Virus record (IMG/VR): IMGVR_UViG_3300033486_000001 | Coordinates: 11,317 to 75,316 of that record | DNA: 64,000 nucleotides | Reading direction: 5' to 3' (one strand) | Origin: a virus | Taxonomy: Duplodnaviria; Caudoviricetes | In this document: positions 3,854 to 63,622 of the stretch, piece after piece | Layout of the letters: each line of letters starts with the position of its first letter | Numbering within the stretch: the stretch's first letter is position 1 | The notes under the pieces: generated by a model | Databases searched by the model: none | Seen by the model: only the letters and a program-made list of their open reading frames with translations | Told to the model about the DNA's origin: nothing | Translations under genes and position numbers: made by a program

Positions 3854-3854
3854 A

Positions 3855-10465: not shown

Positions 10466-11188
10466 TTACTTCTCTTCTGCTACAGCTCGCTTAACTTCGT
10501 CCTTGGTGCAGCCAAGCGCCTCAAGCACGAACTCAAGACCTATTCTACCATTCGTCGCCACGGTCTTTGACGAGGCACCAACCAAGCGAGCCACATCTGA
10601 CGCCAGATTCTTTACTACGACAGGCTGGGTGCCGATGTCGTACTCGCCCTGCAAGGCAGACTGAACGATCTCGTGCATGACGTACTGAGCGACAAACTGG
10701 AGGCCTGGGGCACGATTAACGATGTCCGTGACGTACTTCAGGAGTGCATTGTAGTCTGCGATGACGGCAGGGGTATTCCAGTTCGGTGACTCAGCCCTGT
10801 ACATCCCCATCTCAGTCATCATGCTGCCGACTTCGTCCAACAGCATCGAGTAGTTGGTAAGACCGAACTGATTGACCCGGCCTTTATCCATCCCCTGCCA
10901 CACGTAGTCGGCGACACGTCGGTACACCACATCGCCGTTCACTACCAAAAACTCCCTCTTGGCTGCGATAGCGCAGAACTTCTCTGTGCCAGCGCCCTCT
11001 GGAATCACGACGGAAACGCCTCGACCGGCCAGTCCCATCACCTTGGCACGCAAGTCGGGGAGTTCGTCGCGTGTTCGCGACTGCATGGCCAGACGCCCGG
11101 CCATAGACCTCCAATCGCCCTCCACTGGTGTGTCTACGATTTGCTTCGCTTCACGGTACTTCTTCAATGCGTTCTGGAATTCGGTCAT
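10466..11188 (-). CDS. hypothetical protein, possibly a degenerate NMP/dephospho-CoA kinase fold
   Basis: Start MTEFQ at 11188 (ATGA overlap with dnaE stop). Confidence 0.6.
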   Translation of the reverse strand: MTEFQNALKKYREAKQIVDTPVEGDWRSMAGRLAMQSRTRDELPDLRAKVMGLAGRGVSVVIPEGAGTEKFCAIAAKREFLVVNGDVVYRRVADYVWQGMDKGRVNQFGLTNYSMLLDEVGSMMTEMGMYRAESPNWNTPAVIADYNALLKYVTDIVNRAPGLQFVAQYVMHEIVQSALQGEYDIGTQPVVVKNLASDVARLVGASSKTVATNGRIGLEFVLEALGCTKDEVKRAVAEEK

Positions 11189-44835: not shown

Positions 44836-46722
44836 ATGCCCTATTCCGAACACGAAATGCGCCGCATGCTCTTTACGGTCTGTTCAACCAAAGAGCACTT
44901 GTCCAGGTGGGTGCAAACTTTTTTGGGGTTGGACTTCCCCAGTTCAATCGTATTGGAAGAGTCGAACAGCTCCCCTATGGACGCACTGTGGTTGTTGTAT
45001 AGCAAAGCTATCTCAAACGACGATGAGAATTTCGCTCGTTGTATGAGCTATGCAGCCCGCGGGTCATTTAAGACCCTCTCTGCGTCAGTTCTCGAAGTGG
45101 CCTTGGCTCTACATACACCCCGCAACATAGCCCATCTAGCTGCGACCACTGATCAATCGGGAAAGGCTCAGCAGTACGTGAGGGGGTTCTTCAGCAAGCC
45201 CTACCTTTGCGATTTCCGCCAAGGACAGAACATCAAGCGCATCGACATATGTCGATTTAGCAATGACCGAGGAATTCACCTCTCCGAAAAAGAGTGGCAA
45301 ATCCTAGATGACTCGGAAAAGCGATTTTTCGAGCGACACGACAACTACATACAAATCATTACACTCACCCTACAAGGTGCGAATAGTGCACACACAGAAC
45401 TACTTGTAGTAGACGAAGTCGATACCGTGCCAGTGCAAAACCGTGGAGCCTACGAAGAGGCTAAGTCGATTCCTGACCCGCGCAACGGCCTAAACCCTAT
45501 CACTCTACTGACTTCGACCCGTAAGTTCTCATATGGACTTGTCCAGAAAGAGCTCGATGAGGCGGCCAAGACAGGGCTAAGGGCGTACCACTGGACCGCC
45601 GTGGATGTCGTACAAGCGTGTGAGCCTGAGCGACACCACCCGGAACTACCAAAGGTGCAGCTTTACGTCAATGACGCTGAGTTGACCACCGTAAACGAAG
45701 AGGCTTACTCCAAATTCGATGCGGCGATGCAAGAGAAGTTCACTAAGCATGAAGGGTTCGGCGGTTGCGCGGCATGCTCGCTGTTTTCGGTATGTAAGTC
45801 TCGGCTAGCCACACATCAAGCCTCGAAATCCCCGTTGCTGAAGCCGATCCCGTGGCTGCGCAACCGCATGAAGGAGTTTTCCACCTCGATGGCCCTGACG
45901 CAGCTTATGTGTCGTCAGCCAGATTCCACTGGTTTGATTTACCCAAAGCTTGACCGAGCCATCCACGTCAAGACTGCCTCGGAAATCGCCCAGATGGTTA
46001 CCGGGAGGACTTGTCCACCTGGGATGGACAAAGGCACGCTTTTGAGGATCTTGGTGGACCGCGGGTGTAAGTTTTACACGGGCATGGACTTCGGCTTCAC
46101 ACACCCTTTTTCTTGTGTCACCATGGCCGTGTGGGGGCAAAACGCATTTGTTGTGGACTGTGTCTCCCGATCTGGACTGGAGTTGGATGACAAAGTAGCA
46201 GTATGCGAACACCTACGTGTACTGAATCCTACGATTCACGCCGACACCGAGGCCCCGGCGGATATTGAAACGTTCAAGCGACGCGGTTTTCAAATGCGCG
46301 GCGCCATCAAAGGTCGTGGTAGCGTCAAGTCCGGCATAGAAATCGTACGGATGAAGATGCAGCCAGCCCTCGGCTCCCCGACGTTGTTCTTTTTGAGCGG
46401 AGATCCGGACGTGGAGTTCGCATTCCAGCAGCTCAAAATGTACCACTTTATCACCGACGAAGCCGGCAACATCGCAGACGAGCCAGAAAAAGTCGACGAT
46501 GACTCATGTGACGCGTTGCGTTACGGTATCGTAGGTACTTTCGCACCCAATCACAAAATCGGCCTACCGCAAAACCCGAACAATCCAGCACCTTCGGAAT
46601 ACCAAGCCGCTCCGGGTCGCCCCCAGTGGATGAATGACCACATCGCCAAACTATTAGACGGTGGAGACCTTTCTTCATCGAACAAACCGGTCAAGAAGGG
46701 GAATTTTCACTTTCAGCAATAA
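44836..46722 (+). CDS. terL: terminase large subunit
   Basis: AARGSFKT Walker A, LVVDEVD Walker B, TSTRK, GMDFGFTHP nuclease motif, DDSCDALRY. Confidence 0.9.
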   Translation: MPYSEHEMRRMLFTVCSTKEHLSRWVQTFLGLDFPSSIVLEESNSSPMDALWLLYSKAISNDDENFARCMSYAARGSFKTLSASVLEVALALHTPRNIAHLAATTDQSGKAQQYVRGFFSKPYLCDFRQGQNIKRIDICRFSNDRGIHLSEKEWQILDDSEKRFFERHDNYIQIITLTLQGANSAHTELLVVDEVDTVPVQNRGAYEEAKSIPDPRNGLNPITLLTSTRKFSYGLVQKELDEAAKTGLRAYHWTAVDVVQACEPERHHPELPKVQLYVNDAELTTVNEEAYSKFDAAMQEKFTKHEGFGGCAACSLFSVCKSRLATHQASKSPLLKPIPWLRNRMKEFSTSMALTQLMCRQPDSTGLIYPKLDRAIHVKTASEIAQMVTGRTCPPGMDKGTLLRILVDRGCKFYTGMDFGFTHPFSCVTMAVWGQNAFVVDCVSRSGLELDDKVAVCEHLRVLNPTIHADTEAPADIETFKRRGFQMRGAIKGRGSVKSGIEIVRMKMQPALGSPTLFFLSGDPDVEFAFQQLKMYHFITDEAGNIADEPEKVDDDSCDALRYGIVGTFAPNHKIGLPQNPNNPAPSEYQAAPGRPQWMNDHIAKLLDGGDLSSSNKPVKKGNFHFQQ

Positions 46723-47022: not shown

Positions 47023-48003
47023 ATGGATGCATTCTTAAACACGACCTTTCAAATTCAGGCTTACGCCGACCGTCCGGCCAACTCCAATCCGCGTCTGCGT
47101 GCGGTTGATTGGCGCCGGGATCTCTCCGGCCAAGCCGTATCTAACCCCAAGTCTGAATCCGTACAGCTTGTAGCCGGGGAAACTCGTACGCTCTTCAATG
47201 GACTTCGTACGACGACCTTGGACGGCACCACGGCGTTTACGATGTCGCTGTCGACTCTCGAGTCCGGCCGCTACCGCTTCACCAAAGTCGCTGGAACTGA
47301 CCCGAGTCTTCGCCCCAGCCGAGGGCTTACGCTCAATACAGTTGCTGTCACTGCCGTGGCGTTGGCCAACGGTTCGCTGACAATGACTGTACCCGGACCA
47401 GCCGCTTTCACCGGTGTCGTGGCTGGTGACATCGTGTTTGTCCCCAACACCAATACCGGTGACGCCGCCAACGTTTTCTCGATCTCTAATAGCGGATATT
47501 GGGTTGTGATGGCGGTGCTGTCTCCGCAGTCCCTGAGTCTCACCCGCCTCCCCGGCGCTTCCTTCGAGGGTGTGAGCGAAGTCGTAACGTTGACGTCTAA
47601 TGCGCAACTCCGAGCTTATTCTGCAGCCGGAGTGCAAGTCGATGACTCGGTGTCGATTTCGGCTGGATTCGCCACGGCCACGCAAAAGACATACGATGTA
47701 GTGGCCGTCACAGACACCTTCTTTGAAGTGCGCAGTTCACTCCCGCTCCCCCTTGAGTCGTCCGTCATCCCGACCGCGGTCGGCCTGGTGTTCTACTCCA
47801 GCGCGAAGAATTTCTTGTACGTTGAAGGCGACCAAGAGTTTGTAATCCGCCTCAACGGCTCTACGGACTCGACACAGCGAGTCTCACCGGTGTCGGCCGG
47901 AGAAATCCCCGGAGCATATTTCAAGAACGGTCCGACTTGGTCGCTGGCTGTAGTTAATATGTCTTCCACGTTGCTCAATTTGATGGTAATCGGAGCCGAA
48001 TGA
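47023..48003 (+). CDS. putative virion structural protein
   Basis: Beta-rich Thr/Ser/Val composition; between terminase and portal; promoter-like TGGTACAAT upstream. Confidence 0.6.
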   Translation: MDAFLNTTFQIQAYADRPANSNPRLRAVDWRRDLSGQAVSNPKSESVQLVAGETRTLFNGLRTTTLDGTTAFTMSLSTLESGRYRFTKVAGTDPSLRPSRGLTLNTVAVTAVALANGSLTMTVPGPAAFTGVVAGDIVFVPNTNTGDAANVFSISNSGYWVVMAVLSPQSLSLTRLPGASFEGVSEVVTLTSNAQLRAYSAAGVQVDDSVSISAGFATATQKTYDVVAVTDTFFEVRSSLPLPLESSVIPTAVGLVFYSSAKNFLYVEGDQEFVIRLNGSTDSTQRVSPVSAGEIPGAYFKNGPTWSLAVVNMSSTLLNLMVIGAE

Positions 48004-51000
48004 TGAAAACTACCATATCCGACTTGCTCGCTCCAGCCATCACGGTCCCCGTCAAGGCTAAGCGGACTTACGCCATCGAGGCCGTTGACAAAACCCCGAA
48101 CGACAACGCCTATGAAGCCCTGAACAAGTCTTTGATGTCGCTGGATGGAGAAAAGGATCAGCCAGTCCAACGTCTAGCGTTCGAAATTGATCCGGTCACC
48201 GGACAGAGTGTTTATGCATCACTGTACCGACCTAAGCAAAAAGGGCTGTCTGACATCATCCTGAAGCGGCTGTCGGTCCAGGCCTCTATCGTAGCGTCTA
48301 TTACTAACGCCCGCGGCAATCACGTGTCCGCCTTCGGTCGCCCACAGCCAGATCGTTTTTCCACCGGCTTTAAGATCAAGCCAAACCCGAAACATGTAGA
48401 GAAGCTCAGTCAAGAAGAAAAAGAAGAGCTCCAGCATCGCATCGGTAAGGCCGAGAAGTTGATGTTGACGTGTGGAAAGAAGTCTGACGGCGACAGCACC
48501 AAAGATCTTTCTTTCTCTCAGTTTTTGTTCATGACTACGCGCAACGCACTAATTTTCGGGCGTGTTGCCGTGGAAGCGATTCCGGACGGGGAGGACAAGT
48601 TCCACTCGTTCCGACCGATCGATGCTGGGACGATTTATTTCTCGACAGCACAAAAAGAGGCCGCCGACAACGTACGGCGTCAAGCACAAAACTTGCTGGC
48701 GCGCCTCAAGAATGAAGCTCCTCAAAATTTCATAGATTCCAAGGGGCGCAACGTAGACGAGCTCTTCGGAAGTGATGAATATGCTTGGGTCCAGGTCATC
48801 AACGACATCCCACGGCAGTTCTTCACAGCAAAAGAGTGTCTGGTTCATAACTTTTATCCGGTCACCGACATCGAACAAGTCGGATATCCGCTGACACCTC
48901 TGGACACTGTAGTTTCGGATGTCACGACTTTCATCAACATCACCACACACAACCGGTTGTTCTTCCAGAGTGGTCGCGCAAGCCGTGGCGCAGTGGTGTT
49001 GCAATCTGACGACATCGACGATATCGATTTGCAGCATATTCGCCAGCAATTTCAAGCGAACATCAATGGCGTTGGGAACTCGTGGCGCACTCCGATGTTC
49101 AAAGTCGGTAAGGACGACAAGGTTGACTGGTTTAGTATTGACTCCAATGCCCGGGATCAAGAATTTCAGTACCTCAGCGATTCAAATGCACGCACTATTT
49201 TGAGTGGATTTCAGGTATCTCCTGAGGAAATCAGCGGGTACGGGCACCTCTCGAGGGGCACCAATAGTCAGGCGTTAAGTGAGTGTTTTGACCCGTCGAG
49301 CTACCTCTGGACAAACACGGGACTTCGCACCGCAGAAAGTATTTTGGGGGACGAACAGGAAACTCCACTTCAGATCTGGACGGGTTCGGATTGGCAGAAC
49401 GCCCGGTTGTTTCGCACTGGAGAAAAAGAACTAGTCGAAACCCATGTCAATGGGTACAGTATCAAAACATCTCCAGATCACCGATTCCGCGTTTTGTCGG
49501 AATCCGGAGAATTGATTTGGAAGAAGCAGCAGGAGCTCTGTACCGGCGATTTGTTGGTTATGAACGCAAAGCCGGTTCCTGGAGCGCCGGAACTAATCCC
49601 CTCTTTCCGTGGTCAAAAACTGACTGTCGAGATGGTGGAGCTTTTGGGGTGGATGACCGGTGACGGCTCTTTGGTCGGACCTCGGAAGCGCATTGGTGGG
49701 TATTTGAAGCTGTTTTACCATCCGGTTCGTGAGCGCGAAATCTGGGATCGACACGCCCAGCTCCTATCGGACTTCGGGTTCAACGTCAAACATCATGAAC
49801 GTCAAATCAGCGAAGAGGAAGTCGAGAAGATCAAAGCCCAGAGAGGTTTCGCTTCGGTAGCGTCTAGTCGGATAACTAATACCGTTTATGACACCGAATT
49901 CGTGGGGTGGCTGCATGGATTGGGGTGTGGGTATAGTCATGAAGGCAAGACAATCCCGCCAATATTCCATGTTCTCCCTGTTGAGTATCGTCAGGCGTTC
50001 CTTCGAGGGCTTTTCTCGGCTGACGGTCATACGCCCCAAGGCGGAGCTGTGGTGTTGACCATACAAGATGACCGAACGAGAGAGCAAGCCCGTCAAATGC
50101 TATTGGGGTTGGGTATCAGGACGCTTGGGTGTGATGGTATTTTGAGAGAGAGTCTTGGTCAAGGTAAGGTGTTTAGCCACAAGCTGTTTATCAAAGATCG
50201 CAATTTATTCTGGGAGCAGATCGGCTTCATCCAGCCACACAAGATCGCCCGTCGAACACCTCAGAAGTTCGCGCGTGGTTTTGTTCCAGTGTCATTGGCT
50301 TCTAAGTTGCTTGCTCCGGTCATCGAGTCCGCTATTTTTGCCGGATGGGACAAAAAGACTAAAGATAATATCAGGGGTTGCGCTGGAGCATACTCCGCTC
50401 CTCGACATATCACCTGGAGACAATTACGTTTGGTGTTGGAGCAAGCCCTGGGAGCAGCGCCGTCTTGGTTGACGGACTATCACCTGGAGCCAGTGACTGA
50501 TTTGATTGCACATCAGTCCAAGATGTTGATGGTTGACGTTGAGGTCTTTGATTCACGGCATGCACAGATTCTCCAGGGTTTTCAAGTACACAACTCGAAC
50601 AACGAATATGTGCTCGAAGCACACCGAGACACCGGCATTCGCCCCCTGCTTTGGCAAATGCAAACATTCATCAACGACCGCATCTTCCCGTTGATCGACG
50701 CGGAACTCGCTAAGATCTGCACATTCGAATTCGTCGGACTCGACGCCGAGACGGCCGAAAAAGAGACGACGCGCCTACAAACGGACGCCACCGTCCACAT
50801 GACGTACGACCAAATCCTCCAGAAGGTCGAAAAGAAGCCGCTCGGGGCCAAGTGGGGCGGTACTTTCCCTCTCAACCCAGCCTTCCAACAAATCTTGGAC
50901 AGGTACATGACGGTCGGTCAGATTCTCGAGGGGTTTTTCGGCGTCGCGGGCGCCGGCAAGGACCCCCGCCTTGACTACTGCCGTGATGAGTATTGGTTCC

Positions 51001-51422
51001 GACAGGTTGACGTCCTTAATCAGAAGCAGCAACTCGAACAGCAGACCCAGATGCAAGCCCAACAAGCGGCTCAAGGTGCTCAACAATCCGGAAATTCCGG
51101 ACAGTTGCCACAAGGCTCTACAGTCCCCCAAGGCGACCAACAGCCTGCACCCCAGCAAGATGCCAACCAATCCCAGAACGCGCCACAGCAAGCTCCACAG
51201 CCCCAGCAAGACCCGAACCAACCCGACCTCTCTACCGGAATTGACCAGCTCGCAGGGATTTTGAACAAGTCTGAGAGCCAACTCCCCGTCTCGAAGCGGC
51301 ACCTGTTGGCGCAGCAACGATTGTTTATCTCGCACGCCATGTCGGCGCTAGAAGAAGAGTCGAAACTAGCCATCAAAGAAATTTCGGGAATCGCCAAACA
51401 GCACATTGCGCCGACCAAGTAG
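48000..51422 (+). CDS. portal protein (intein-containing, Gln-rich C-terminus)
   Basis: FRPIDAGTI, FFQSGRASRG, DQEFQYL, GIRPLL..IND.I; position between terminase and protease. Confidence 0.85.
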   Translation: MMKTTISDLLAPAITVPVKAKRTYAIEAVDKTPNDNAYEALNKSLMSLDGEKDQPVQRLAFEIDPVTGQSVYASLYRPKQKGLSDIILKRLSVQASIVASITNARGNHVSAFGRPQPDRFSTGFKIKPNPKHVEKLSQEEKEELQHRIGKAEKLMLTCGKKSDGDSTKDLSFSQFLFMTTRNALIFGRVAVEAIPDGEDKFHSFRPIDAGTIYFSTAQKEAADNVRRQAQNLLARLKNEAPQNFIDSKGRNVDELFGSDEYAWVQVINDIPRQFFTAKECLVHNFYPVTDIEQVGYPLTPLDTVVSDVTTFINITTHNRLFFQSGRASRGAVVLQSDDIDDIDLQHIRQQFQANINGVGNSWRTPMFKVGKDDKVDWFSIDSNARDQEFQYLSDSNARTILSGFQVSPEEISGYGHLSRGTNSQALSECFDPSSYLWTNTGLRTAESILGDEQETPLQIWTGSDWQNARLFRTGEKELVETHVNGYSIKTSPDHRFRVLSESGELIWKKQQELCTGDLLVMNAKPVPGAPELIPSFRGQKLTVEMVELLGWMTGDGSLVGPRKRIGGYLKLFYHPVREREIWDRHAQLLSDFGFNVKHHERQISEEEVEKIKAQRGFASVASSRITNTVYDTEFVGWLHGLGCGYSHEGKTIPPIFHVLPVEYRQAFLRGLFSADGHTPQGGAVVLTIQDDRTREQARQMLLGLGIRTLGCDGILRESLGQGKVFSHKLFIKDRNLFWEQIGFIQPHKIARRTPQKFARGFVPVSLASKLLAPVIESAIFAGWDKKTKDNIRGCAGAYSAPRHITWRQLRLVLEQALGAAPSWLTDYHLEPVTDLIAHQSKMLMVDVEVFDSRHAQILQGFQVHNSNNEYVLEAHRDTGIRPLLWQMQTFINDRIFPLIDAELAKICTFEFVGLDAETAEKETTRLQTDATVHMTYDQILQKVEKKPLGAKWGGTFPLNPAFQQILDRYMTVGQILEGFFGVAGAGKDPRLDYCRDEYWFRQVDVLNQKQQLEQQTQMQAQQAAQGAQQSGNSGQLPQGSTVPQGDQQPAPQQDANQSQNAPQQAPQPQQDPNQPDLSTGIDQLAGILNKSESQLPVSKRHLLAQQRLFISHAMSALEEESKLAIKEISGIAKQHIAPTK
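49284..50594 (+). mobile_element. intein (437 aa) with LAGLIDADG homing endonuclease
   Basis: Starts LSE|CFDPSS; block B TSPDHRF; LLGWMTGDG and FLRGLFSADG; ends FQVHN|SNNEY (+1 Ser). Confidence 0.92.
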
Positions 51423-51440: not shown

Positions 51441-52052
51441 ATGAAAATCATACCTCCTTCAGCAGAACTCGTTTGGATCACCCCTAATGCCGCGCAAGTC
51501 ATTGAGATGGCTGCGCGCAAATGCTATGCTTCCGAAGGTCAGTATGACCCCGCCCGTACGGCCGATTTTTTAGACCGAGTAATCAACCAAAAGCACCATG
51601 AAAGCGTCATGGAGCACGCTAGTGCTTGCTTCGACATCACCACCGACCGTGGGGTGATGGCCGAACTCACGCGTCATCGCCTTGCTAGTTTTTCGGTGCA
51701 GTCAACGAGGTACTGTTCATATAACAAAAGTAAATTCGGTAGTCAAATCGAGGTGTTGGAACCGCCAGATCTTTCGTCTGAGATGAGGGTTATTTGGACC
51801 CAAGCCATGGAAGCTTCCGAAAGAGCTTACATGCAGATGTTGGAATTTGGAGCACAACCGCAAATTGCGCGCTCGGTACTCCCCAACGGCCTTGCAACCC
51901 ACATGCGAGTCACCGCCAACTTCCGTGAATGGCGCCACATCTTCTCTCTCCGGACGGACAAGGCGGCGCATCCGCAAATCCGTGAGGCTATGGAGATGGT
52001 GCAGGATTCCATGGCGATGCACGTCCCAGAGTTGTTCGGTTTCGAGTTTTAG
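51441..52052 (+). CDS. thyX: FAD-dependent thymidylate synthase
   Basis: HESVMEH, ELTRHRLASFSVQSTRY, ARSVLPN, NFREWRH. Confidence 0.95.
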   Translation: MKIIPPSAELVWITPNAAQVIEMAARKCYASEGQYDPARTADFLDRVINQKHHESVMEHASACFDITTDRGVMAELTRHRLASFSVQSTRYCSYNKSKFGSQIEVLEPPDLSSEMRVIWTQAMEASERAYMQMLEFGAQPQIARSVLPNGLATHMRVTANFREWRHIFSLRTDKAAHPQIREAMEMVQDSMAMHVPELFGFEF

Positions 52053-52056
52053 TTCC

Positions 52057-52088
52057 TTGACATCGGAACCCAACCCGCGGTAATACTC
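52057..52088 (+). promoter_or_regulatory. promoter-like element, copy 1
   Basis: TTGACATC-N5-CCAACCCGCGGTAATACTC. Confidence 0.65.
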
Positions 52089-52120
52089 GCCGTCAAACAC
52101 GCAATATAGAGGTCGTCCAA

Positions 52121-52369
52121 ATGACTAAGACAACTAAAACCGTTGCTGAGCACTACCCCTTGGGTACTCGCCTGATGCACCCCTCCTACCCTTGGAGTGT
52201 GTGGACCGTGAGCGAGGTGCGCGTGACCATTGACGGAGCCGGACACCACGTGGACTACGCGTTGGAGGGTACGGAGGTGCGTGGCGCGGCTCGCTGGTCG
52301 GCGGCGGAGATGTTCGTGCCAGCACCCGATGAATCGGCCTTTGAATCTCCCCACTACTTCGCCGACTAA
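52121..52369 (+). CDS. hypothetical protein
   Basis: GAGG RBS; flanked by the two promoter copies. Confidence 0.55.
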   Translation: MTKTTKTVAEHYPLGTRLMHPSYPWSVWTVSEVRVTIDGAGHHVDYALEGTEVRGAARWSAAEMFVPAPDESAFESPHYFAD

Positions 52370-52377
52370 ATCGGCCA

Positions 52378-52409
52378 TTGACATCACCATCCAACCCGCG
52401 GTAATACTC
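52378..52409 (+). promoter_or_regulatory. promoter-like element, copy 2
   Basis: TTGACATC-N5-CCAACCCGCGGTAATACTC, identical apart from the N5. Confidence 0.65.
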
Positions 52410-52446
52410 ATCCCATCAACGCAGTCCAAATCACGGAGAAAACACT

Positions 52447-53562
52447 TTGGCTACCATTGAAGTCGACAAGAACGATAAGTCTCTCGGCTATGACACGCTG
52501 AATCTCACTCAGGCGGCAAAGGCTCTGAAGTACTCGCTTGTGTCCAATCAGCCCATCAATCTCATCGGGCCTCCTGGCATCGGTAAGACGGCAATCGTGG
52601 CGGCTGCTATTGAAGGGCTCGACATGTCGCTTCTTACGTTCATCTTGTCATTGTGCGATCCTACAGACATCGGCGGGATGCCGGTGGTTGGGGTCAAGTG
52701 TGTCAATCGGATCCCCTTCGAGGCTCTCAAGATGGCTTGCGATGCACCACACGCACTCTTCTTTGACGAACTTACATGTGCACCGCCGCCAGTGCAGGCC
52801 GCTTCGCTTCGCGTCATTCTTGAGCGCTACGTCGGAGACTACAAGCTCCACCCCGGAACTCGCATCATCGCTGCGTCCAACCCGCCGGATCAGGCGGCTG
52901 GCGGGTACGAACAGTCTCTCCCCCTCCTCAGCCGTCTTACCCAAATCAAGGTGCTGCCTACCGTTGAAGAGGTACAAAATTACTTCTTCCAGCTTGGGTC
53001 CGAGGGTTCGACGTTGCGGACGTTGGCTGTCGACTTCGCAGCCACGCTGGAGATGGCTCCGGACTTGCTGGCTCTTGAGCCACCATCCGGTACTGTGGCA
53101 TCCGGCAAGCCATGGGGTAACCCTCGCTCGTATGAGCGCGGACTGAAGGTGTGCGCCTCCGCCATCGACGGTGGCGAGTCTGACACCAGTCCGATTTTTG
53201 CGGCGTGTCTTAGTGGCAACGTGGGGGACGACGCTGCTGCAGGTTTCATGACCATCCGCAAGATTCGCGATCAGCTCCCCTCCAAGAAGGAGATCGAAGC
53301 CAACCCCATGTCGGCGAAGCTCCCACAGGACGTCAACTCAGCCATCGCGGTGTTGGGCGTCCTCGCGCAGGTCTGCCAGACCGACCCCTGCCCAGCCAAC
53401 ATCTATGCCGACCGTCTTCAGCACGAGGTTCGCATGGCCGCCACGCGATCTCTCGGCCGCTACAAGATGAGCGATTACACCAAGTCGCCGTATTACAAGG
53501 AAGGTATCGCCGCCAGGAATCGTCTGTTGCAGACCCTTGGCAAGGCGATGAACAACCTCTGA
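52447..53562 (+). CDS. MoxR-like AAA+ ATPase
   Basis: GPPGIGKT, LFFDEL, IIAASNP, LLSRL, NPRSYE. Confidence 0.88.
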   Translation: MATIEVDKNDKSLGYDTLNLTQAAKALKYSLVSNQPINLIGPPGIGKTAIVAAAIEGLDMSLLTFILSLCDPTDIGGMPVVGVKCVNRIPFEALKMACDAPHALFFDELTCAPPPVQAASLRVILERYVGDYKLHPGTRIIAASNPPDQAAGGYEQSLPLLSRLTQIKVLPTVEEVQNYFFQLGSEGSTLRTLAVDFAATLEMAPDLLALEPPSGTVASGKPWGNPRSYERGLKVCASAIDGGESDTSPIFAACLSGNVGDDAAAGFMTIRKIRDQLPSKKEIEANPMSAKLPQDVNSAIAVLGVLAQVCQTDPCPANIYADRLQHEVRMAATRSLGRYKMSDYTKSPYYKEGIAARNRLLQTLGKAMNNL

Positions 53563-53601
53563 GTCGTTGACACTCAATTCGAATCCAAGTAAGGGTACCA
53601 C

Positions 53602-54825
53602 ATGTCAAACGCCACCATCGAGCGCTGCAAAGCCAACGTAGCTATGCTGGGGTTCATGCACCCGGCATTCCTAATGATCCACGCCCAAATCCGTGACAAA
53701 TACCGTATCGTTACGGCGGAGCAGGGGTACGGGACGATGGCAATGACATCGACGGGCTCCATCCTAGTCAACGAGAAGTTCGCCGCGAGTCTCAAGTCGG
53801 ATGAACTGCAAGGGGTATTGGCGCACGAGATGTTGCACTTGGTGTTAGGACATTGCCGCGCGAGCAACCGAGATCCATGGATCTTTAACGTCGCACAAGA
53901 CATGGTTATAAATGCGGCACTACGCAAGGACGGCATTAAACTCACACAGAGTGCCTTGTATCCGCCATCAGAATACACCGGTGACCTCTTCTCGGAGGCC
54001 GTGTACGAGTGGCTGGTGAAGAATCCACAGCATTTGCCCCAAAAAAAGAAGTGCGATAAGTGTAATGGAACCGGCAAGAAGTCGGATGGCACTGATTGCG
54101 ATTGCGATCAACAAGGAGACGCCGGAGCTGGTTGCGGCGTCGTTAATGAGGACGACTCAAATCCCGACAAACCGGACTGGAAGAAAATCTCCACTCAGGC
54201 TCGTATGCTTGCTCGCTCGGCCGGGATGGGCTCGTCTGCCATTGCAGCTCTTTTGGCTCCTAGAGTAGCGAAAATCGACTTCAAGCGCGTGATTCGACAC
54301 GGTTTTGAGGTGACTTCTTCTCGACAGCGTCGTGATTTTCAAACCTATGCGAAGCGCAATCGCCGCTCACCACCACAAGGTATTCAATTGCCAGGCTGGA
54401 CCGGGAATACGCCGTCCGTCTCAGTGGTGGTTGACGCTTCTGGCAGTATGGATCGTGAGTGGATCAACGTCATTGCCGCCGAAACTATCTCGCTCATGAG
54501 GACTTTTACCGGCGTCAAGGTGTTCCTGGCGGTGCACACGTCGGAATTGGTGTGGGCGGGGTGGCTGAACTCGAACGACACCTGGAAACTGAGTGAGGCC
54601 TTTGGCTTCAGCGGTGGGACAGACCCACAGCCGGCGTACGACGCCGTCCAGAAGGCTACTAAAGGTAGGTGTGACAATTTGATTCACTTCACCGACACGG
54701 AATTCGGATCTGAGTGGCCTGCCGTGCCAGCGAGGCATCTTATTGTAGGGGCTTTTGGTAGGAACATCTCCACCAAGCCGCCCCCTGGATCTCAGGTCAT
54801 TCTTTGTGATATGGGTGACCGATGA
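53602..54825 (+). CDS. metallopeptidase-like (HExxH) + vWA domain protein (DUF2201-type)
   Basis: VLAHEMLH, FNVAQDMVIN, VVDASGSM, GGTD, FTD. Confidence 0.85.
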   Translation: MSNATIERCKANVAMLGFMHPAFLMIHAQIRDKYRIVTAEQGYGTMAMTSTGSILVNEKFAASLKSDELQGVLAHEMLHLVLGHCRASNRDPWIFNVAQDMVINAALRKDGIKLTQSALYPPSEYTGDLFSEAVYEWLVKNPQHLPQKKKCDKCNGTGKKSDGTDCDCDQQGDAGAGCGVVNEDDSNPDKPDWKKISTQARMLARSAGMGSSAIAALLAPRVAKIDFKRVIRHGFEVTSSRQRRDFQTYAKRNRRSPPQGIQLPGWTGNTPSVSVVVDASGSMDREWINVIAAETISLMRTFTGVKVFLAVHTSELVWAGWLNSNDTWKLSEAFGFSGGTDPQPAYDAVQKATKGRCDNLIHFTDTEFGSEWPAVPARHLIVGAFGRNISTKPPPGSQVILCDMGDR

Positions 54826-55888: not shown

Positions 55889-58033
55889 ATGCAAGCTTTG
55901 GCCAAAAATGCCGCACCAGCACCCGTCACGGAAGATGACACCATCATCGATGGCGTTCTTGCGTCAGAAGCGATCGACAAGTCCGGTGAAGTGCTTGATG
56001 TGGATGGCTGCGACATCACTGAATTCGATGAAGGTCGCGGACTCATCAATTACGAGCACAAGGACACCGGCCCGCAAGACATCATCGGAAAGATCCTTTA
56101 CGCCAAGAAAATCTTTTCCGCCAAAGATTGCATTAACGATCGTCAACGCAAGTACTGGGATGACCTCAAGCTTCCACTGATTTACGGCATCGTACGTCTA
56201 GCTGATGGAAGTGGACACTCTGGCGCCATCGCCGCCGCCGCCCGCATCCGCGACGACGTCAAACACAAAGAGCAGTCCAGGTGGGGCTTCTCGATTGAAG
56301 GTACGACCATCAAGCGCGATACCAAGACAGGCCGACTTCTGGTTTCCATCGCCAAACGATGTGCGCTCACCTTCAAACCGTGCAACGAAAGCGCCGCAAC
56401 AGGACTCATCTTTGACCCAGGCGCCAAGTCCGACTTGTTCCGCACTGCACCGTCAGAAGCTGCCTTTGTTGGCGGAGAAGAACTCGCCAAGACCTTCGCG
56501 GCTGGATCTATGGACGTCGCTCCATCGCAACTCACGGGTAATGCAGCGCTAGCGGTAGAAGACTTGGGTACCAGAGGCAAGCTGAGGTGGGCGCTGAGTA
56601 AGTGGGATCGCAAAACCCCACTTAAGTCGTTTCTCAAAATGCAAATGCCTGAGGCGGATCCGGCCTACCTAGACAATTTTGCCGACATGGCGGAGCGGTA
56701 CACAATCCGCAAGGCGCAAGAGTTGGCCGTCAAGAAGCACCTAGTCAAGTCTGTGGCTACAAAGGTGCTCGCGAAGGCGATCGACCAACACCGGGCAGAC
56801 GCTAAGGCGGCGATCATTGCCAAGATGGATTTGATGGGGGTTGAACTCCTAGAAGCCCTACAAAAAGCCGATCCACCCAAACCCGCGCCGTCAAGGGTGG
56901 GGCCGGTCGTTCGCAAGGCATCACCTCCAGAACCTGAAACTGTTACATTCAACGGTCGCACCGTCAAGCCGGGATTTGCTATCGCCGGTGAAGGCGACAA
57001 AAAGCAGCATCTACGCGTTCTCGAGCACACCCCGGAACACCTGATCGCCATCCCTAAAGAGAAAATCGGCGGCTGGCAAGCGTCGGATCTGCTCAAGCTT
57101 CCGCGCAACAAGGTCCCGGGCAATATCTGGATGACCCGCCCGCCGGAATACGTCAATACCCCAGCTGTAATCGATTCGAAAACCCACGGGTTGGTCGATT
57201 ACACCCACCACCCAGAAGTCCACGCGTTAATCCACGGTCTGGATATGGGTCAAGCAATCAAAACTGGTACGGTAGGCATGAAGGCGAAAGCCGGGCAAGC
57301 CGGCTGGGCGAAGAATGCTCAAGGTAAGCAAGTGTACGTCAAGCGAGACGACAACGAACGTCCCTTCGGAGAATCCAAGCGTGAGGCGCTGTACCACAAC
57401 CTCGCCAAAGACTTTTATGGGATGGGGAGGTACGTTACACCGACCGCTGCAGTGGTACACCCGACTACTGGACAACACTACACGGTGGTGGAACACACAC
57501 CGGGCGAGCACTTCAAGCACGGCGAGGGGCATCCGGAGATGTTGCAGAACTTGGCAGATAGCGGAGAACTCCACAAACTCGCCATCATGAACTCCATAGC
57601 ACATAATAACGATCGCCATCAGTTCAACTATATGCTTGATGACAAGGGCGGGATTAAGCTGATCGATCACGGATTGACTTTTAGTGCCGGAGGAGACAGC
57701 AAAGCTCCGACTACACCGCACTATCTGATAGATGGCGCAGGAAAACTCCCTAACCATCCAGAGGCGCAGAAGTGGGCTAACAAACTACTACACCCAGAAG
57801 CCCAAAAATGGCTGCCTAGGATGAACGTCCTCGTTCACCCTGAAGCCCAAAAGTGGTTAAGCAAACTCAAGCCGGCTGAGCTGGAACGCCAGATGAGTCA
57901 ACACGGTGTCCCACCAGAGTTCGTCCAAGAAGCGTCCAGACGTTTACAGGCGATTCAAAAACACGCTCAAGTCAATCCGAAAGCTAAGTTGTATCAGGCC
58001 TTGAACGCCCCCTTCGAAGGTGGTACAAAGTAA
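55889..58033 (+). CDS. prohead protease fused to a HipA/PI3K-like kinase domain
   Basis: N-terminus IDKSGEVLDVDG, INYEH (H57), GFSIEG (S135); C-terminus VYVKR (K485), REAL, NDRHQFN (D575), LIDHG (D593). Confidence 0.85.
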   Translation: MQALAKNAAPAPVTEDDTIIDGVLASEAIDKSGEVLDVDGCDITEFDEGRGLINYEHKDTGPQDIIGKILYAKKIFSAKDCINDRQRKYWDDLKLPLIYGIVRLADGSGHSGAIAAAARIRDDVKHKEQSRWGFSIEGTTIKRDTKTGRLLVSIAKRCALTFKPCNESAATGLIFDPGAKSDLFRTAPSEAAFVGGEELAKTFAAGSMDVAPSQLTGNAALAVEDLGTRGKLRWALSKWDRKTPLKSFLKMQMPEADPAYLDNFADMAERYTIRKAQELAVKKHLVKSVATKVLAKAIDQHRADAKAAIIAKMDLMGVELLEALQKADPPKPAPSRVGPVVRKASPPEPETVTFNGRTVKPGFAIAGEGDKKQHLRVLEHTPEHLIAIPKEKIGGWQASDLLKLPRNKVPGNIWMTRPPEYVNTPAVIDSKTHGLVDYTHHPEVHALIHGLDMGQAIKTGTVGMKAKAGQAGWAKNAQGKQVYVKRDDNERPFGESKREALYHNLAKDFYGMGRYVTPTAAVVHPTTGQHYTVVEHTPGEHFKHGEGHPEMLQNLADSGELHKLAIMNSIAHNNDRHQFNYMLDDKGGIKLIDHGLTFSAGGDSKAPTTPHYLIDGAGKLPNHPEAQKWANKLLHPEAQKWLPRMNVLVHPEAQKWLSKLKPAELERQMSQHGVPPEFVQEASRRLQAIQKHAQVNPKAKLYQALNAPFEGGTK

Positions 58034-58035
58034 CC

Positions 58036-59223
58036 ATGGACGCTTCCAACATCATAATGGTGTATCAGACCCACCCGCACGAATCGGGTGAAATCCATCA
58101 CGTTCTTGTGGCTAAACTCCTGCAAGTTCCTGGCCAGACCACGGTTTTGGAGGATCACACCCCGGATCACACATTCGATGAGGCTGCTGTAGATCCAGTC
58201 GCGCTAACCTCGAAGCTTAATGCAGCTCGCCGTTCGATGTACTTCAAGGTGTGCACACTTCAAGAACTCAACGAGGGTGAATACCCGGAACTTTTGTCGG
58301 AGGCGTTGCTGCCGCCAGCACACGGTCCCGAGTCTCGGTTCGATTATTTCCGCATTGGAATGCCGCAGCCGCAGATGTTGGAGTTCTATGAAGGTGAAGG
58401 TCATTTGGACGGACACCCATTGTCGGATGAAGAACTACAGCTCATCCACTCGAACATTGAGCAGGGTTTGGCGTCGCTCTCGTACCACAAGGACGAGCCT
58501 GAGTTGATTTCGAAGTCGGAGGACCTGGCGAAGGTCGAGCCTGGTCTGGAGGCAGCACTAGGTGGCCTCAGGGCTGCAGTGGCAGCTGGCCATGTGCACC
58601 CGGATGTTCTCAAGACACTGTCCGGGCATATTTTCAAGGATACCATGGTGCCTACATTAGGCAACAAGGTAGCATACGCAGACTTCCTTACCCGCCCGAA
58701 AGAGGGGGTTCATATTCGACTCGATGGGTCAAAATTCGGCGGCATCAATAAGCGCGCCGGATTTGAAACCGGCAACGAAGCGATTAAGTCTATGTTCGGT
58801 GCCGTTCGCTCAGCCCTCGACGAGAGTGTGGGACGGAAGCACGCCAAAGCCTTCAGGATCGGTGGGGATGAAGCGAGTCTTTTTGTACCCACCATTGAGC
58901 ACGCGGCTATGTTTCATCGCGCCCTTAAGCGCCATCTCGACGCTCTACCGTTAGTGGCCGGACAGAAGTTGGCGTTTGACATGGGTGTAGGTAAGACGCC
59001 AGAGGCTGCAGAGCAAGGTCTAATCAAGGCCAAGACGCATGGGAAGTCGATGAACTATCCACTACACGAGTTGCGCACACATGCCTACATCAATATCCCA
59101 GGACACGAAGGGCATTTACCTACAGAGATAGAGCAGCCTCCGAAGACTCCAGCGCCGACACCGACTCCGGCACAGCCAACGGAGAAGCCCGCCGAGCCAG
59201 CCACTTCAAAACCTGTTGGGTAG
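58036..59223 (+). CDS. GGDEF-like nucleotide cyclase domain protein in the head module
   Basis: DTMVPTLGNK, RLDGSKFGGIN (D230, N238), GFETGN (N247), FRIGGDEA (G276-A280), FDMGVG. Confidence 0.75.
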   Translation: MDASNIIMVYQTHPHESGEIHHVLVAKLLQVPGQTTVLEDHTPDHTFDEAAVDPVALTSKLNAARRSMYFKVCTLQELNEGEYPELLSEALLPPAHGPESRFDYFRIGMPQPQMLEFYEGEGHLDGHPLSDEELQLIHSNIEQGLASLSYHKDEPELISKSEDLAKVEPGLEAALGGLRAAVAAGHVHPDVLKTLSGHIFKDTMVPTLGNKVAYADFLTRPKEGVHIRLDGSKFGGINKRAGFETGNEAIKSMFGAVRSALDESVGRKHAKAFRIGGDEASLFVPTIEHAAMFHRALKRHLDALPLVAGQKLAFDMGVGKTPEAAEQGLIKAKTHGKSMNYPLHELRTHAYINIPGHEGHLPTEIEQPPKTPAPTPTPAQPTEKPAEPATSKPVG

Positions 59224-59299: not shown

Positions 59300-59572
59300 T
59301 TAAGACCGCCGGGCTTTTTCGCAAGTCTTACATCGCGACTGGTGCTTGTTGAAATGTAATAACTCGACTTCCACTGAGTGGCACGTGGAGCACTCCTTGA
59401 GCCCCATGGCGCGCATGCACTGCCTGCAAATGCCGTTACACCCGCAATGCGCCGGTAGATGGCATTCCTTGCACATGGTGATGTGAAAACCTTTGGATAC
59501 CGCCAGTTGATTCCGCTTGCAACGTAAGCAGGTTCGGCCGGGGTATGTGTCGTGACATGTGCGGCATCTCAT
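59300..59572 (-). CDS. Cys-rich putative zinc-finger protein
   Basis: Multiple CxxC pairs; ATGA overlap with the tnpB stop. Confidence 0.55.
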   Translation of the reverse strand: MRCRTCHDTYPGRTCLRCKRNQLAVSKGFHITMCKECHLPAHCGCNGICRQCMRAMGLKECSTCHSVEVELLHFNKHQSRCKTCEKARRS

Positions 59573-60675
59573 TGAGCCGCCTCGAGGAATTCTTTAGACT
59601 TATAACAGGTAGCCTCAACACTTCCGATCAATACCGACCCGGCTCCTTCTGCAAGGGCTTGGTGTTGCAAGCCGCGTTGCAAGATGTTGATTGCTGAGTT
59701 CACATCCCTGTCAAGGAATGCCCCACAATCGCACATCCATTCACGCTTATTCAAACCCGCCAATCCTCTCGGACCGGACTTTAGTCCACAAATGTGGCAA
59801 GTTTGGGTTGTAAAACTTTCGTCGACTTCCTTGTATATCGCGCCATTCCCAATGGACTTGTAGCGCAACATCTTACGGAAGTTAGACCAACCTACGTCAA
59901 GAACCGACTTGGCCATGGTGGTCTGAGACAATTTGCTAGATGAAACGTCTCCTACGAAAATATGGTTGTACTTCTTTGTGACGTCATTGGACAACTTGTG
60001 ATGAAAGTCTTTGCGGACATCCTTAATCTTTTGGTGAATTTTGCGGACTTGCTTGCGCTTGTTGGCGCGTTGCGCGATCGCGAGTTTACGGGCGTATTTA
60101 GACAATATGCGCGGATTGGCGATTTTAGTGCCATCAGAAAACGTAGCGAAGTTTTTGAGGCCGAGGTCGATGCCTACCGATGCGTCGCCGCTGCGCAATG
60201 AGGTTTCTGGGAGTTCAATGACAACATTCAGAAACCATCGTCCTTGCGAATCTTGGCTGAAACTGGAGCCGTACAGAATCCTTGCTTCTGTCGGAAGCGG
60301 ACGATCTGAGAATACTCGGAAGACGTGTCCCATAAAAACAAAGCTGCCGTCCCGATATTTTAAGGCAGCCGCCTTCATTGGAATCCACCCTAGACTTTTC
60401 TTCCCGCGCCACTTCAGCCAACGCTTATTACACTTAGCGCGACTTTGAACGTATTGTCTAGCTATTGCTTGAATCGAGTCGGAGTGTAGTCCGAGTTCCT
60501 TGGAACTCCCCGCCGTGAGGTGGTTCAAATCGAACTCGCCGAGCCATTTGCGACGAGCCTTAACTGCTTGCTGCTGCACATTGTTACAGTAGTTCCACAC
60601 AAAGTTGACCTTACGGGCGAGTCCGTTAAGAAACCCTTCGTAAGACTTGACTCTGTAGTGGTAGGTGAGTTGCAT
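59569..60675 (-). CDS. tnpB: TnpB RNA-guided endonuclease (IS200/IS605/IS607 family), no transposase adjacent
   Basis: VNFVWN, GRWFLNV, RuvC-I GIDLG, RuvC-II region FVGDV, VDESFTTQTCHIC, RuvC-III DRDVNSAINIL; ATG start at 60675. Confidence 0.92.
   Translation of the reverse strand: MQLTYHYRVKSYEGFLNGLARKVNFVWNYCNNVQQQAVKARRKWLGEFDLNHLTAGSSKELGLHSDSIQAIARQYVQSRAKCNKRWLKWRGKKSLGWIPMKAAALKYRDGSFVFMGHVFRVFSDRPLPTEARILYGSSFSQDSQGRWFLNVVIELPETSLRSGDASVGIDLGLKNFATFSDGTKIANPRILSKYARKLAIAQRANKRKQVRKIHQKIKDVRKDFHHKLSNDVTKKYNHIFVGDVSSSKLSQTTMAKSVLDVGWSNFRKMLRYKSIGNGAIYKEVDESFTTQTCHICGLKSGPRGLAGLNKREWMCDCGAFLDRDVNSAINILQRGLQHQALAEGAGSVLIGSVEATCYKSKEFLEAAQ
59573..59800 (-). ncRNA. predicted TnpB omega/reRNA (scaffold overlapping the tnpB 3' end, plus guide); boundaries approximate
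   Basis: TnpB omegaRNAs are known to overlap the 3' end of tnpB; segment 59614-59597 matches 60804-60821 at 16/18 nt. Confidence 0.45.
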
Positions 60676-60683
60676 TGACGATA

Positions 60684-60712
60684 CGTATACCACTCCGGTC
60701 CGCCACCGTCAA
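60684..60712 (-). promoter_or_regulatory. sigma70-like promoter of tnpB
   Basis: TTGACG-17 nt-(GTGG)TATACG, 8 nt before the ATG. Confidence 0.6.
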
Positions 60713-62230: not shown

Positions 62231-63622
62231 ATGTCAGAAGTTACCCAAGCACTACTCAAGTCGTTGGAAGCCGGCAATTACGACGCGGCTCCCTCTACCC
62301 TTACGCAGGGCGCAGCACTCCAGCGTGAGGATCTCACCCCCATGATGGTCAATTTGTGCTTCGAAGACCAACACGTCAAGTTGCAGAACAAGCTGACCGT
62401 CAAGAAGGTGAAGAGCCTGATGTCGCAGTTCAACCGCACTCTGAGCTACGGCCAGATGGGCGACAGCGCGCAGCTCGAAGGCGCCGTTGGCCAAGACGAC
62501 AACGCAGACTACGTGAGAATTACAGTCCCGATGGCGTTCTACGCTCAGGTCCGACGCGTGTCTTACGCTTCGACCTTGATTGAGACGGCAGACGGCGTTG
62601 ATGCTCAGACGCGCGCTTCCGAAGCAGCAGCAATGGTCATCAAGGGCGACGTTGAGTTCGATTGCTTCCGCGGTATGGAAGGCTTCTCGAACGCAGGCGT
62701 TTTCGATGGCAATGAAATGGCTCAGCCTATGGTCCCCGGCATGAAGGGCCTGGATCAGCAGATTCGTTCGAGCGATTCCGAGCGTAATGCACACGATCTG
62801 ATGTTCGGCGAGTACGGCGCTGATGACTCGGTTGTCATCAACGGCGGCAGCTACCTCAGCCAGACCAACGTTGAGGACGCAACCCTCCGCAGCAGCATGA
62901 ACTGGGGCAATGCGACCAAGTTCCTGCTCGATCCCAAGACCCTCTCGGCGTACAACCTGATCACCCTCGGCAAGGAGCGCATCAACCTCGGCTCCACGGC
63001 GCAGGATGTCACTGGTTCAGAGCTTCGACGGCAGTTCACGTCGAGCGGCACTGCAACGTTCGAGCCCAGCCGCTTCCTCTCCGGCAAGACCAAGCCCAAG
63101 AATCCGAAGCAGGGTGGTCCCTCGGCTCCTGCCGCTGTGACTGCTACCCCTGCGGGCAGCACCACCAGCTTCCCCGCTGGCGATTACTGGTACTTCGTGA
63201 CCAGCGTCAACGAGATGGGCGAGTCTCCTCGCACTGCCATCGCAGCAGCAGCAACTGTTGCGGCGGCCGGCCAGGTCACCCTCTCCATCACCTCGCCTGG
63301 TACGGGCACGGTTCGTTACTTCAACGTGTACCGTAGCGTTGCCGGTGGAAGTCTCGCTTCGTGTAAGTTCATCGGCCGCGTGGCTGTGAGCAACACGGGC
63401 ACCACAAGCTACCTCGATCTAAACAATAGGAATCCGGCGTATACGACTGGATTCCTCGTGGACTTCGACTCGATGGACCTTGCCGAATTGGCCTCGTATT
63501 CGAAAGTTAAGCTGGCTATTCAGGACCTGAGCTTCCCTGAGGCTCACCTCCGATTCCTCGCTCTCCGAGTCTTCAAGCCCCGCGTCAACGTGCTCGTCGA
63601 CAACCTGATGGGTCGTAACTAA
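62231..63622 (+). CDS. major capsid protein (SPO1/Herelleviridae-like)
   Basis: LLKSLEAG..GAALQREDL, LEG..DYVR.TV.MAFY..RRVS, FN3-like insertion PSAPAAVTAT..YWYFVTSVN..FNVYRS. Confidence 0.85.
   Translation: MSEVTQALLKSLEAGNYDAAPSTLTQGAALQREDLTPMMVNLCFEDQHVKLQNKLTVKKVKSLMSQFNRTLSYGQMGDSAQLEGAVGQDDNADYVRITVPMAFYAQVRRVSYASTLIETADGVDAQTRASEAAAMVIKGDVEFDCFRGMEGFSNAGVFDGNEMAQPMVPGMKGLDQQIRSSDSERNAHDLMFGEYGADDSVVINGGSYLSQTNVEDATLRSSMNWGNATKFLLDPKTLSAYNLITLGKERINLGSTAQDVTGSELRRQFTSSGTATFEPSRFLSGKTKPKNPKQGGPSAPAAVTATPAGSTTSFPAGDYWYFVTSVNEMGESPRTAIAAAATVAAAGQVTLSITSPGTGTVRYFNVYRSVAGGSLASCKFIGRVAVSNTGTTSYLDLNNRNPAYTTGFLVDFDSMDLAELASYSKVKLAIQDLSFPEAHLRFLALRVFKPRVNVLVDNLMGRN

Follow-up and report, generated by a model that had tools for sequence, protein, structure and literature searches.

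The open reading frame (ORF) at positions 55889-58033 (+ strand) of a 64,000-nucleotide stretch of DNA from a tailed virus, hereafter the window, encodes a head-maturation protease joined to a kinase. The ORF is open throughout, there is a GAGAGG ribosome-binding site 6 nucleotides (nt) 5' of its ATG and its product (P0001) is 714 residues long. On balance, the data favour a head-maturation protease with a C-terminal enzyme cargo, in which the kinase would be loaded into the head, released by self-cleavage and perhaps delivered to the next host. A preliminary description of this DNA had claimed a fusion of protease, linker and kinase, and the fusion is real, being a single intact chain. All the motifs named in that description are at the claimed residues: INYEH at 53 (H57), GFSIEG at 133 (S135), VYVKR at 482 (K485), REAL at 498, NDRHQFN at 574 (D575) and LIDHG at 591 (D593), with ELAKTF, PLKSF, HLVKSV, VLAKAI and ALQKAD in the linker. 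The window makes up most of a 75.3-kb IMG/VR virus contig (IMGVR_UViG_3300033486_000001) rated about 46% complete, which suggests a genome of about 160 kb, comparable to that of its relative, Myxococcus phage Mx1 (169.6 kb). Mx1 is the sole cultured phage in which tblastn against phages detected a homologue; a megablast search of phages with the 5 kb around the protease-kinase gene gave no match.

Judged by its sequence and its predicted structure, the N-terminal part is the phage's own head-maturation protease, of the T4 gp21 and SPO1 gp3.2 type. An AlphaFold2 model of residues 1-345, made with an alignment of 33 relatives, was compared with all PDB representatives. The model is confident over residues 19-175, with predicted local distance difference test (pLDDT) values >90 over the protease domain, and the best fold match of this domain is T4 gp21 (5jbl; Z 11.0, root mean square deviation (rmsd) 2.6, 127/165 residues). 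The varicella-zoster virus protease comes second (Z 9.6) and no other PDB chain is found at Z >=8. Consistent with this, the top Foldseek matches are herpesvirus assemblins and gp21 only, with a probability of 1.0 for the human cytomegalovirus assemblin. The profile phrog_1028 ('head maturation protease') matches at E 2e-7, the match being confined to residues 131-170 (40 residues), and no Pfam protease family matches the 714-residue protein at E up to 1. A hidden Markov model (HMM) of the family protease matches SPO1 gp3.2 at E 2.8e-15; SPO1 is the type phage of the Herelleviridae, and gp3.2 is annotated as its head maturation protease. All 33 sequences have H57 and S135, which align with NFDH and GFSVEG of SPO1 gp3.2. 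Additionally, the capsid protein of the window is 50% identical to the Mx1 capsid protein and 25-27% identical to those of the SPO1 group. The earlier label of a Herelleviridae-type protease is upheld by the gp3.2 match and by this capsid similarity. The gene sits between the portal and capsid genes, and its product is the only protease of the gp21/SPO1 gp3.2 type in the Herelleviridae-like head module.

The strongest evidence for self-processing comes from a sequence likeness between the fusion protein and the capsid protein, to which the preliminary description had not drawn attention. In an alignment of the capsid proteins of the window phage, Mx1 and one metagenomic relative, the N-termini resemble the stretch that follows the protease domain. 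The capsid N-terminus ALLK/SLEAGNYDAAPSTLTQGAALQREDLT (residues 7-35) resembles EELAK/TFAAGSMDVAPSQLTGNAALAVEDLG (residues 198-226) of the protease-kinase, the slash marking the candidate cut here and below. The likeness was tested with an HMM built solely from the protease linkers of 33 relatives, which was run on the six frames of the window. It matches the capsid N-terminus at E 1.3e-12 and nothing else in the six frames; it also matches the capsid N-termini of Mx1 (E 3e-8) and of two metagenomic loci (L008 and L005). In the fusion protein the arm copy falls in a disordered stretch of the AlphaFold2 model (residues 182-223, pLDDT <50), and among 33 sequences K201 is kept in 32, E224 in 31 and D225 in 32. 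There is the same pairing in SPO1, between the protease (...LDK/SLEAGYEVDP...) and the capsid protein gp6.1 (...LNK/ALEAGHTVNP...). This suggests that the arm copy is an old feature of the protease type and not of the kinase fusion.

The capsid protein also gives an indication of where the cut would fall. The PDB capsid chains matched are 9vel, 5lii and 9row, and a Staphylococcus-phage capsid protein of this family is present there twice, with 463 residues (5lii_P) and with 439 residues (9row_B). Chain 9row_B begins at S25, right after VVK24, and the VVK24 column is that of capsid K10 and protease-kinase K201. This start fits the loss of about 23 residues from A511- and phi812-type capsid proteins. 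The candidate Lys site is based on these chain lengths and on this loss; the papers searched did not give the cleavage site of Herelleviridae capsid proteins. Taken together, the arm copy and the 439-residue mature capsid chain support a Lys-type cleavage, in keeping with the L-x-K sites of the preliminary description, with K201/T202 as the candidate scissile bond.

The linker that contains the arm copy had been described as rich in L-x-K motifs followed by S, A or T, and this enrichment was confirmed. Residues 181-345 contain six copies of the motif [LIVM]xK[SAT], where shuffles predict 1.07 and 0/5000 of them reach six, and residues 346-714 contain none, against 1.1 expected. Among 35 relatives of the short form (see below) the motif was observed 122 times in the linker (expected 32), 19 times in the beta-plus-kinase part (expected 25) and eight times in the protease domain (expected 20), counts that come from related sequences and not from independent events and so describe a pattern, not a probability. 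The distribution fits the pattern expected if the linker were cut up while both folded enzymes were spared. As for the five linker sites listed earlier, K201 stands as a conserved site but the rest do not: position 246 is K or R, and Lys is found at 287 in 17/33, at 296 in 12/33 and at 326 in 2/33 sequences. A second conserved candidate, K275 (IRK/A, 30/33), was absent from that list. In the AlphaFold2 model the linker is made up of a small helical module (residues 228-252) and then one long helix of 69 residues (258-326).

The C-terminal part was modelled separately (residues 341-714, mean pLDDT 86, predicted template modelling score 0.87). It begins with a small beta domain of seven strands (351-420, pLDDT 79-97), which the fold-search matches barely cover and which is kept in 73 relatives of full architecture and in some stand-alone kinases. 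For the remainder, Foldseek puts PI3-kinase (PI3K) catalytic domains first (PI3K p110, E 1e-5, probability 1.0). A second fold search of the kinase model, independent of Foldseek, gave Z scores and placed type II PI4-kinase (PI4K) alpha (4pla) at Z 17.4, over 239 residues with an rmsd of 3.5 and 12-13% identity. This is followed by the Helicobacter secreted kinase CtkA (Z 13.6), Fam20 (13.4), HipT (11.7), actin-fragmin kinase (11.6), CotH (10.8), HipA (10.1-10.5) and the bacterial lipid kinase MavQ (9.7). A kinase fold is therefore predicted, as the preliminary description had proposed, and its reading withstands the condition it had set itself, that a prediction without such a fold would refute it. 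Of its term 'HipA/PI3K-like' the PI3K part holds. The HipA part does not: there is no HipA Pfam match at E up to 1 and the fold match (Z 10.5) is weaker than those to PI4K II, CtkA and Fam20, and membership of the HipA family was rejected. No antitoxin-type partner of the HipA/HipT kind was seen. The predicted fold makes the kinase a PI3K/PI4K-like enzyme whose nearest counterparts are type II PI4K and secreted kinases, CtkA among them.

The full catalytic set that had been claimed is also well conserved. K485, D575, R576, H577 and D593 are invariant in 33 relatives down to about 29% identity, and E499 and N580 are nearly so (E499 in at least 90% of sequences). The family profile aligns DRHxxN...IDHG with GDRHNSN...IDFG of p110 alpha, in which the metal-binding Asp, the DFG equivalent, corresponds to D593; K485 and E499 were assigned as the ATP-binding Lys and the helix-C Glu from fold position and conservation rather than from coordinates. 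From these residues the domain is apparently active. A PDB sequence search with the single protein gave only chance matches, to trypanosome surface glycoproteins, and with the family profile only a short catalytic-loop match to PI3K/PI4K at E ~0.02. The heptapeptide HPEAQKW occurs three times within 34 residues of the kinase domain (623-656). The third copy alone fits the conserved HPEA..W of the family, in which H650, P651, A653 and W656 are conserved; the other two fill a low-confidence loop of the C-lobe (model residues 277-303), which looks like a recent local duplication.

In order to see how widespread the architecture is, relatives were collected in several ways. A word-based search gave 36 relatives. 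A kinase-domain profile searched against 1.84 billion cluster representatives (clusters at 50% identity) gave 1028 clusters at E <=1e-3 and 519 at E <=1e-10, and domain HMMs were scored on about 190 fetched proteins. A search for loci from the kinase alignment, for which few peptide patterns were usable, gave one close relative only. Protease and kinase occur together in 114 of the fetched relatives, Mx1 included. In these fused proteins the kinase is always C-terminal and is usually <=50 residues from the C-terminus. When the search was seeded with the protease and linker only, 33 of the 36 proteins found had the kinase. Kinase fusion is the norm in this protease clade and not rare.

The gap between linker and kinase is bimodal, at about 110-150 residues in short forms such as the window protein or about 560-670 in long forms such as that of Mx1. 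The long forms (P0004-P0023; Mx1, L001 7953-11672) have a conserved insert of about 500 residues between linker and kinase, at about residues 300-800. There is no assignment for this insert from Pfam, PDB sequences or the ESM Atlas; by eye only, it has an HhH-GPD-like stretch (VPGLA.KTARY...VPDTHF.RY). In one short-form relative (P0030; L007 10001-12190) a Pfam DUF5661 module at residues 239-283 (E 5e-13) replaces the capsid-arm copy. DUF5661 is present too in an mCpol/GGDEF-like protein (L012 17307-18404) that lies near a polyvalent kinase protein, and may serve as a further module for docking or processing. Comparison of the arm motif, linker and beta domain with the GGDEF neighbour and the other head-module proteins gave no shared module (all E >0.1). 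The exception among these comparisons is a marginal whole-protein linker match at E 0.0065, with no single stretch <0.1, to the mCpol/DUF5661 protein encoded at L012, an unrelated locus.

The gene downstream of the protease-kinase encodes a GGDEF-like protein and begins 3 nt past the kinase stop codon. It has the same position in Mx1 and in two metagenomic contigs (L007 and L008). The Pfam GGDEF match is at E 2e-4 in the window protein and is stronger in relatives; in Mx1 the GGDEF partner is divided over two genes (150 and 243 residues). Mx1 and two metagenomic contigs share one gene order in this region: portal, small gene, protease-kinase, GGDEF protein, two small genes and capsid protein. 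In one relative, P0032, the protease, linker and beta domain are fused in frame to the entire GGDEF protein, from its first Met, and the kinase is absent. This suggests that the handle can carry other cargo and that the kinase can be lost. A survey of the C-terminal cargo of homologous proteases had been called for in the preliminary description, and it shows that the cargo does vary, between short forms, forms with the insert of about 500 residues and the one GGDEF fusion. The GGDEF-like protein may be a second head-loaded enzyme.

The same kinase family is also present outside head modules. Among the fetched proteins, about 60 consist of the kinase on its own and are 340-500 residues long. 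On three contigs of 150-175-kb phages the stand-alone gene always follows a gene for an SbcC/Rad50-like ATPase, and its neighbours are genes for a DnaE-type polymerase, RecA, an Mre11-like phosphoesterase and dUTPase, as in replication and repair modules. PI3K-related kinases (PIKKs) work with Mre11-Rad50. The pairing with an SbcC-like gene recalls this and may, by analogy, hint at the target pathway. Other kinases of the family form the last domain of proteins of 2000-2500 residues with NUDIX, ParB_N, DUF3293, HEAT or GNAT domains. The catalytic residues are kept equally in the stand-alone kinases and in those of the polyvalent proteins, both of which are without the protease. 'Polyvalent proteins' of such make-up have been proposed to be packaged and injected, and in that survey assemblin-type peptidases are at C-termini only (Iyer et al., 2017; PMC5512222). 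The kinase clade of the survey was considered as a match for the present kinase and is a different clade. The fold is also found in predicted viral structures named as portal, ADP-ribosyltransferase and Nudix proteins and in haloarchaeal tailed viruses, matches that are leads at the level of fold only. The name 'PI3K/PI4K catalytic domain-containing protein' on uncultured phage proteins is an automatic one.

These data suggest the following course of events. The protease must enter the prohead in order to cut the capsid protein, so the kinase fused to it would very likely be enclosed along with it. After assembly, it is quite likely that the protease would cut after the arm-motif Lys, at K10 of the capsid protein and K201 of its own chain, and probably at more of the L-x-K sites in the linker. 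These cuts would free either a fragment of about 56 kDa (residues 202-714), with the capsid-arm look-alike first, or a beta-plus-kinase core of about 41 kDa. The arm copy may dock the fragment where the real capsid arms bind. The folded kinase, without linker-type sites, would be too large to exit the closed shell and would therefore stay with the DNA. By analogy with T4 Alt and internal proteins, it could then be ejected into the next host as a ready-made kinase acting on host or defence targets, a step that, like the retention, we put forward tentatively. On this reading the head probably takes up the kinase, and the inferences of its entry into the prohead and of its release through self-cleavage have good support.

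Several points weigh against this course of events. The Pfam PF00454 (PI3_PI4_kinase) match at residues 560-604 scores 21.4 bits, under the gathering cut-off of 27.1, and only relatives lie above it (P0030, 30.2; P0029, 27.5; P0058, 36.6; P0068 and P0061, 36.9 bits). The relatedness of the sequences behind the motif counts was mentioned above, and the 439-residue PDB chain is the sequence given by the depositor rather than the outcome of a cleavage assay. There is an alternative candidate cut at E224/D225, with Glu at P1 as in T4 gp21, which was considered because the protease fold is gp21-like and which we rank below K201/T202. The stand-alone kinases belong to replication and repair modules and not to head modules, which suggests that the job of the kinase is not tied to the capsid, and in P0032 there is one relative of the protease that has no kinase. 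Finally, a literature search found no paper dealing with the fusion protein, with the virion proteins of Mx1 or with a kinase carried in a capsid.

One other explanation is that the kinase acts in the producing cell, on host proteins late in infection, or in the prohead, on head, scaffold or portal proteins, and is then destroyed without travelling to the next host. The stand-alone relatives suggest that such an enzyme can act in the cytoplasm, and the prohead proteases HK97 gp4 and T4 gp21 digest themselves after use. However, the beta-plus-kinase part is without candidate sites (0 vs 1.1; in relatives 19 vs 25) while the linker is packed with them, which argues for intact release and not degradation. 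Fusion to an enclosed protease would take the enzyme out of the cytoplasm, and the C-terminal position of the kinase is strictly maintained, and we consider action confined to the producing cell or the prohead unlikely. It is doubtful, too, that the enzyme is a lipid or small-molecule kinase, acting on a membrane lipid at entry, on a nucleotide or on a modified DNA base, possibly with its GGDEF neighbour. The best fold match, PI4K II alpha, lies far above the protein kinases (Z 17.4 vs 13.6), the Pfam family is PI3_PI4_kinase, the lipid kinase MavQ is among the matches (Z 9.7) and the conserved neighbouring gene encodes a GGDEF-type nucleotide cyclase, found in one case on the same handle. However, bacteria seldom contain phosphoinositides, no lipid-binding element was identified in the protein, and the substrate cannot be deduced from a common fold. 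Many members of the fold group are protein kinases (CtkA, Fam20, HipA/HipT, actin-fragmin kinase, CotH and the PIKKs). The bacterial and secreted members are mostly protein kinases, and with CtkA, Fam20, HipA/HipT and actin-fragmin kinase among its relatives a protein substrate is more likely than a lipid, although the nearest structure is that of a lipid kinase.

We regard it as highly improbable that the kinase-like domain is dead, or binds nucleotide only, and extends the protease in a structural, scaffold-like or capsid-docking role. In favour of this, the proteases of herpesviruses and of several phages come joined to scaffold proteins, there is a long helix ahead of the kinase-like domain and its PF00454 score is under the cut-off. 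In contrast, all or nearly all relatives at 29-50% identity have the phosphotransfer residues, and these are kept in stand-alone and polyvalent versions where there is no protease to extend. Additionally, a separate 310-residue gene already occupies the scaffold position ahead of the capsid gene, by comparison with SPO1.

The features of the fusion gene and of its surroundings are given in Table 1. The gene order is large terminase, portal, ThyX, MoxR-type ATPase, DUF2201 metallopeptidase/VWA protein, protease-kinase, GGDEF-like gene and major capsid protein. The portal gene is interrupted by an intein that includes a LAGLIDADG endonuclease domain. The genes for ThyX, the MoxR-type AAA ATPase and the DUF2201 metallopeptidase/VWA protein (51441-54825, +) separate the portal from the protease-kinase, and in Mx1 and other relatives this interval has one small gene and no such set. 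There is also a 374-residue ORF on the opposite strand (59569-60693, -), which breaks the head operon: it follows the GGDEF gene and comes ahead of the genes that precede the capsid gene.

Table 1. Positions of the protease-kinase gene, its domains and neighbouring genes in the window, and of stand-alone kinases on other contigs
Feature	Position	Strand	Basis
Whole gene: prohead protease, capsid-arm copy, helical linker, beta domain, PI4K-like kinase	55889-58033	+	Intact ORF
Capsid-maturation serine protease domain, residues 16-179 (H57, S135)	55934-56425	+	AlphaFold2 model, fold match, HMM
Capsid N-terminal arm copy, residues 198-226, begins at conserved ELAK201/T	56480-56566	+	Linker HMM
Helical linker, residues 228-345	56570-56923	+	AlphaFold2 secondary structure, motif counts
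Small all-beta domain, residues 351-420	56939-57148	+	AlphaFold2 model
PI3K/PI4K-type kinase domain, residues 430-710 (K485, E499, D575-R-H-x-x-N580, D593)	57176-58018	+	Fold match, conservation
HPEAQKW, three copies (residues 623, 635, 650)	57755-57856	+	Sequence
GGDEF-like protein, 395 residues, RIGGDEA	58036-59223	+	Pfam GGDEF, E 2e-4
Major capsid protein, 463 residues	62231-63622	+	phrog_752, E 1e-43
Arm-motif original in capsid protein, residues 7-35, ALLK10/SLEAG...	62249-62335	+	Alignment
Large terminase (head module)	44836-46722		
Portal, 1140 residues, intein-interrupted	48000-51422	+	Pfam Intein_splicing, LAGLIDADG_3; portal matches flank both sides
Stand-alone kinase (L003)	2944-4185		
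Stand-alone kinase (L010)	10001-11308		
Stand-alone kinase (L011)	10001-11305		

Some phage proteins are known to enter the host already made, among them T4 Alt, the internal proteins, the N4 RNA polymerase and the MuF-toxin fusions. Head-loaded enzyme cargo is a known kind, here with the maturation protease as its handle, and the papers searched do not describe a kinase borne by the head protease itself. The preliminary description likewise named no characterised example of this fusion. If delivered, the kinase would arm the phage with a phosphorylation weapon made beforehand and active before any phage gene expression. Myxobacteria are rich in Ser/Thr kinase signalling, and defence or signalling proteins in hosts such as these would be plausible targets. 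The design is common (more than 1000 clusters with the kinase domain and 114 fusions) and has a cultured representative in Mx1. The capsid-arm copy also offers a concrete rule for how Herelleviridae-type proteases may recognize their cut sites.

A broader and distinctly speculative possibility is that the protease and the arm look-alike form a general loading device. The arm copy would take the place of a real arm and dock the cargo on the inner capsid wall, the linker would then be trimmed by the protease and signalling-type enzymes would be injected with the DNA, rewiring or disarming the host in the first seconds of infection. The cargo set would comprise the PI4K-like kinase, the adjoining GGDEF-type cyclase and the insert of about 500 residues in the long forms. 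If true, this protease-based device would do for hundreds of large phages not yet cultured what the capsid-targeting sequence does for T4.

The closest known counterpart is the 'putative prohead protease' of Mx1 (OR576727.2, WNM70322.1; 1239 residues), which has protease, arm motif, linker and kinase in the same order. It is 34% identical to the window protein in the protease (E 2e-52) and 26% in the kinase (E 6e-26). The neighbours are the same, with the portal upstream and a GGDEF-type 'nucleotide cyclase' and then the capsid protein downstream. The Mx1 protein differs in having about 500 extra residues between linker and kinase, as do most relatives, and its record names only the protease. 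SPO1 gp3.2 (256 residues) and T4 gp21 have the same protease fold with its His/Ser pair, and SPO1 shares the arm motif, but gp3.2 ends about 60 residues after this motif and has no enzyme cargo. T4 gp21 cuts after Glu, whereas Lys is indicated for the window protein.

On the side of the kinase, type II PI4K (4pla/4hnd, PF00454) is the best fold match and shares D-R-H-x-x-N and I-D-x-G. It differs in that identity is only 12-13% and in that the window protein comes from a phage, has a beta domain ahead of the kinase and is unlikely to act on a lipid. HipA and HipT belong to the same broad fold group and share the Asp/Asn catalytic residues (Z 10.5-11.7). In herpesvirus polyproteins of the pUL26 type there is a self-cleaved release site, and a C-terminal passenger enters the procapsid with the N-terminal protease. 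The assemblin-fold N-terminal protease is common to both, but the passenger is a scaffold there and an enzyme here. No match to a MuF (SPP1 gp7-like) domain was found in the window protein with Pfam or PHROG. T4 Alt and internal proteins, MuF-toxin fusions and polyvalent proteins (PMC5512222) nevertheless follow the same logic, in which a component of head assembly has an enzyme attached that the head protease processes and that travels with the DNA. The window protein differs from these packaged effectors in that the handle is the maturation protease itself and is at the N-terminus.

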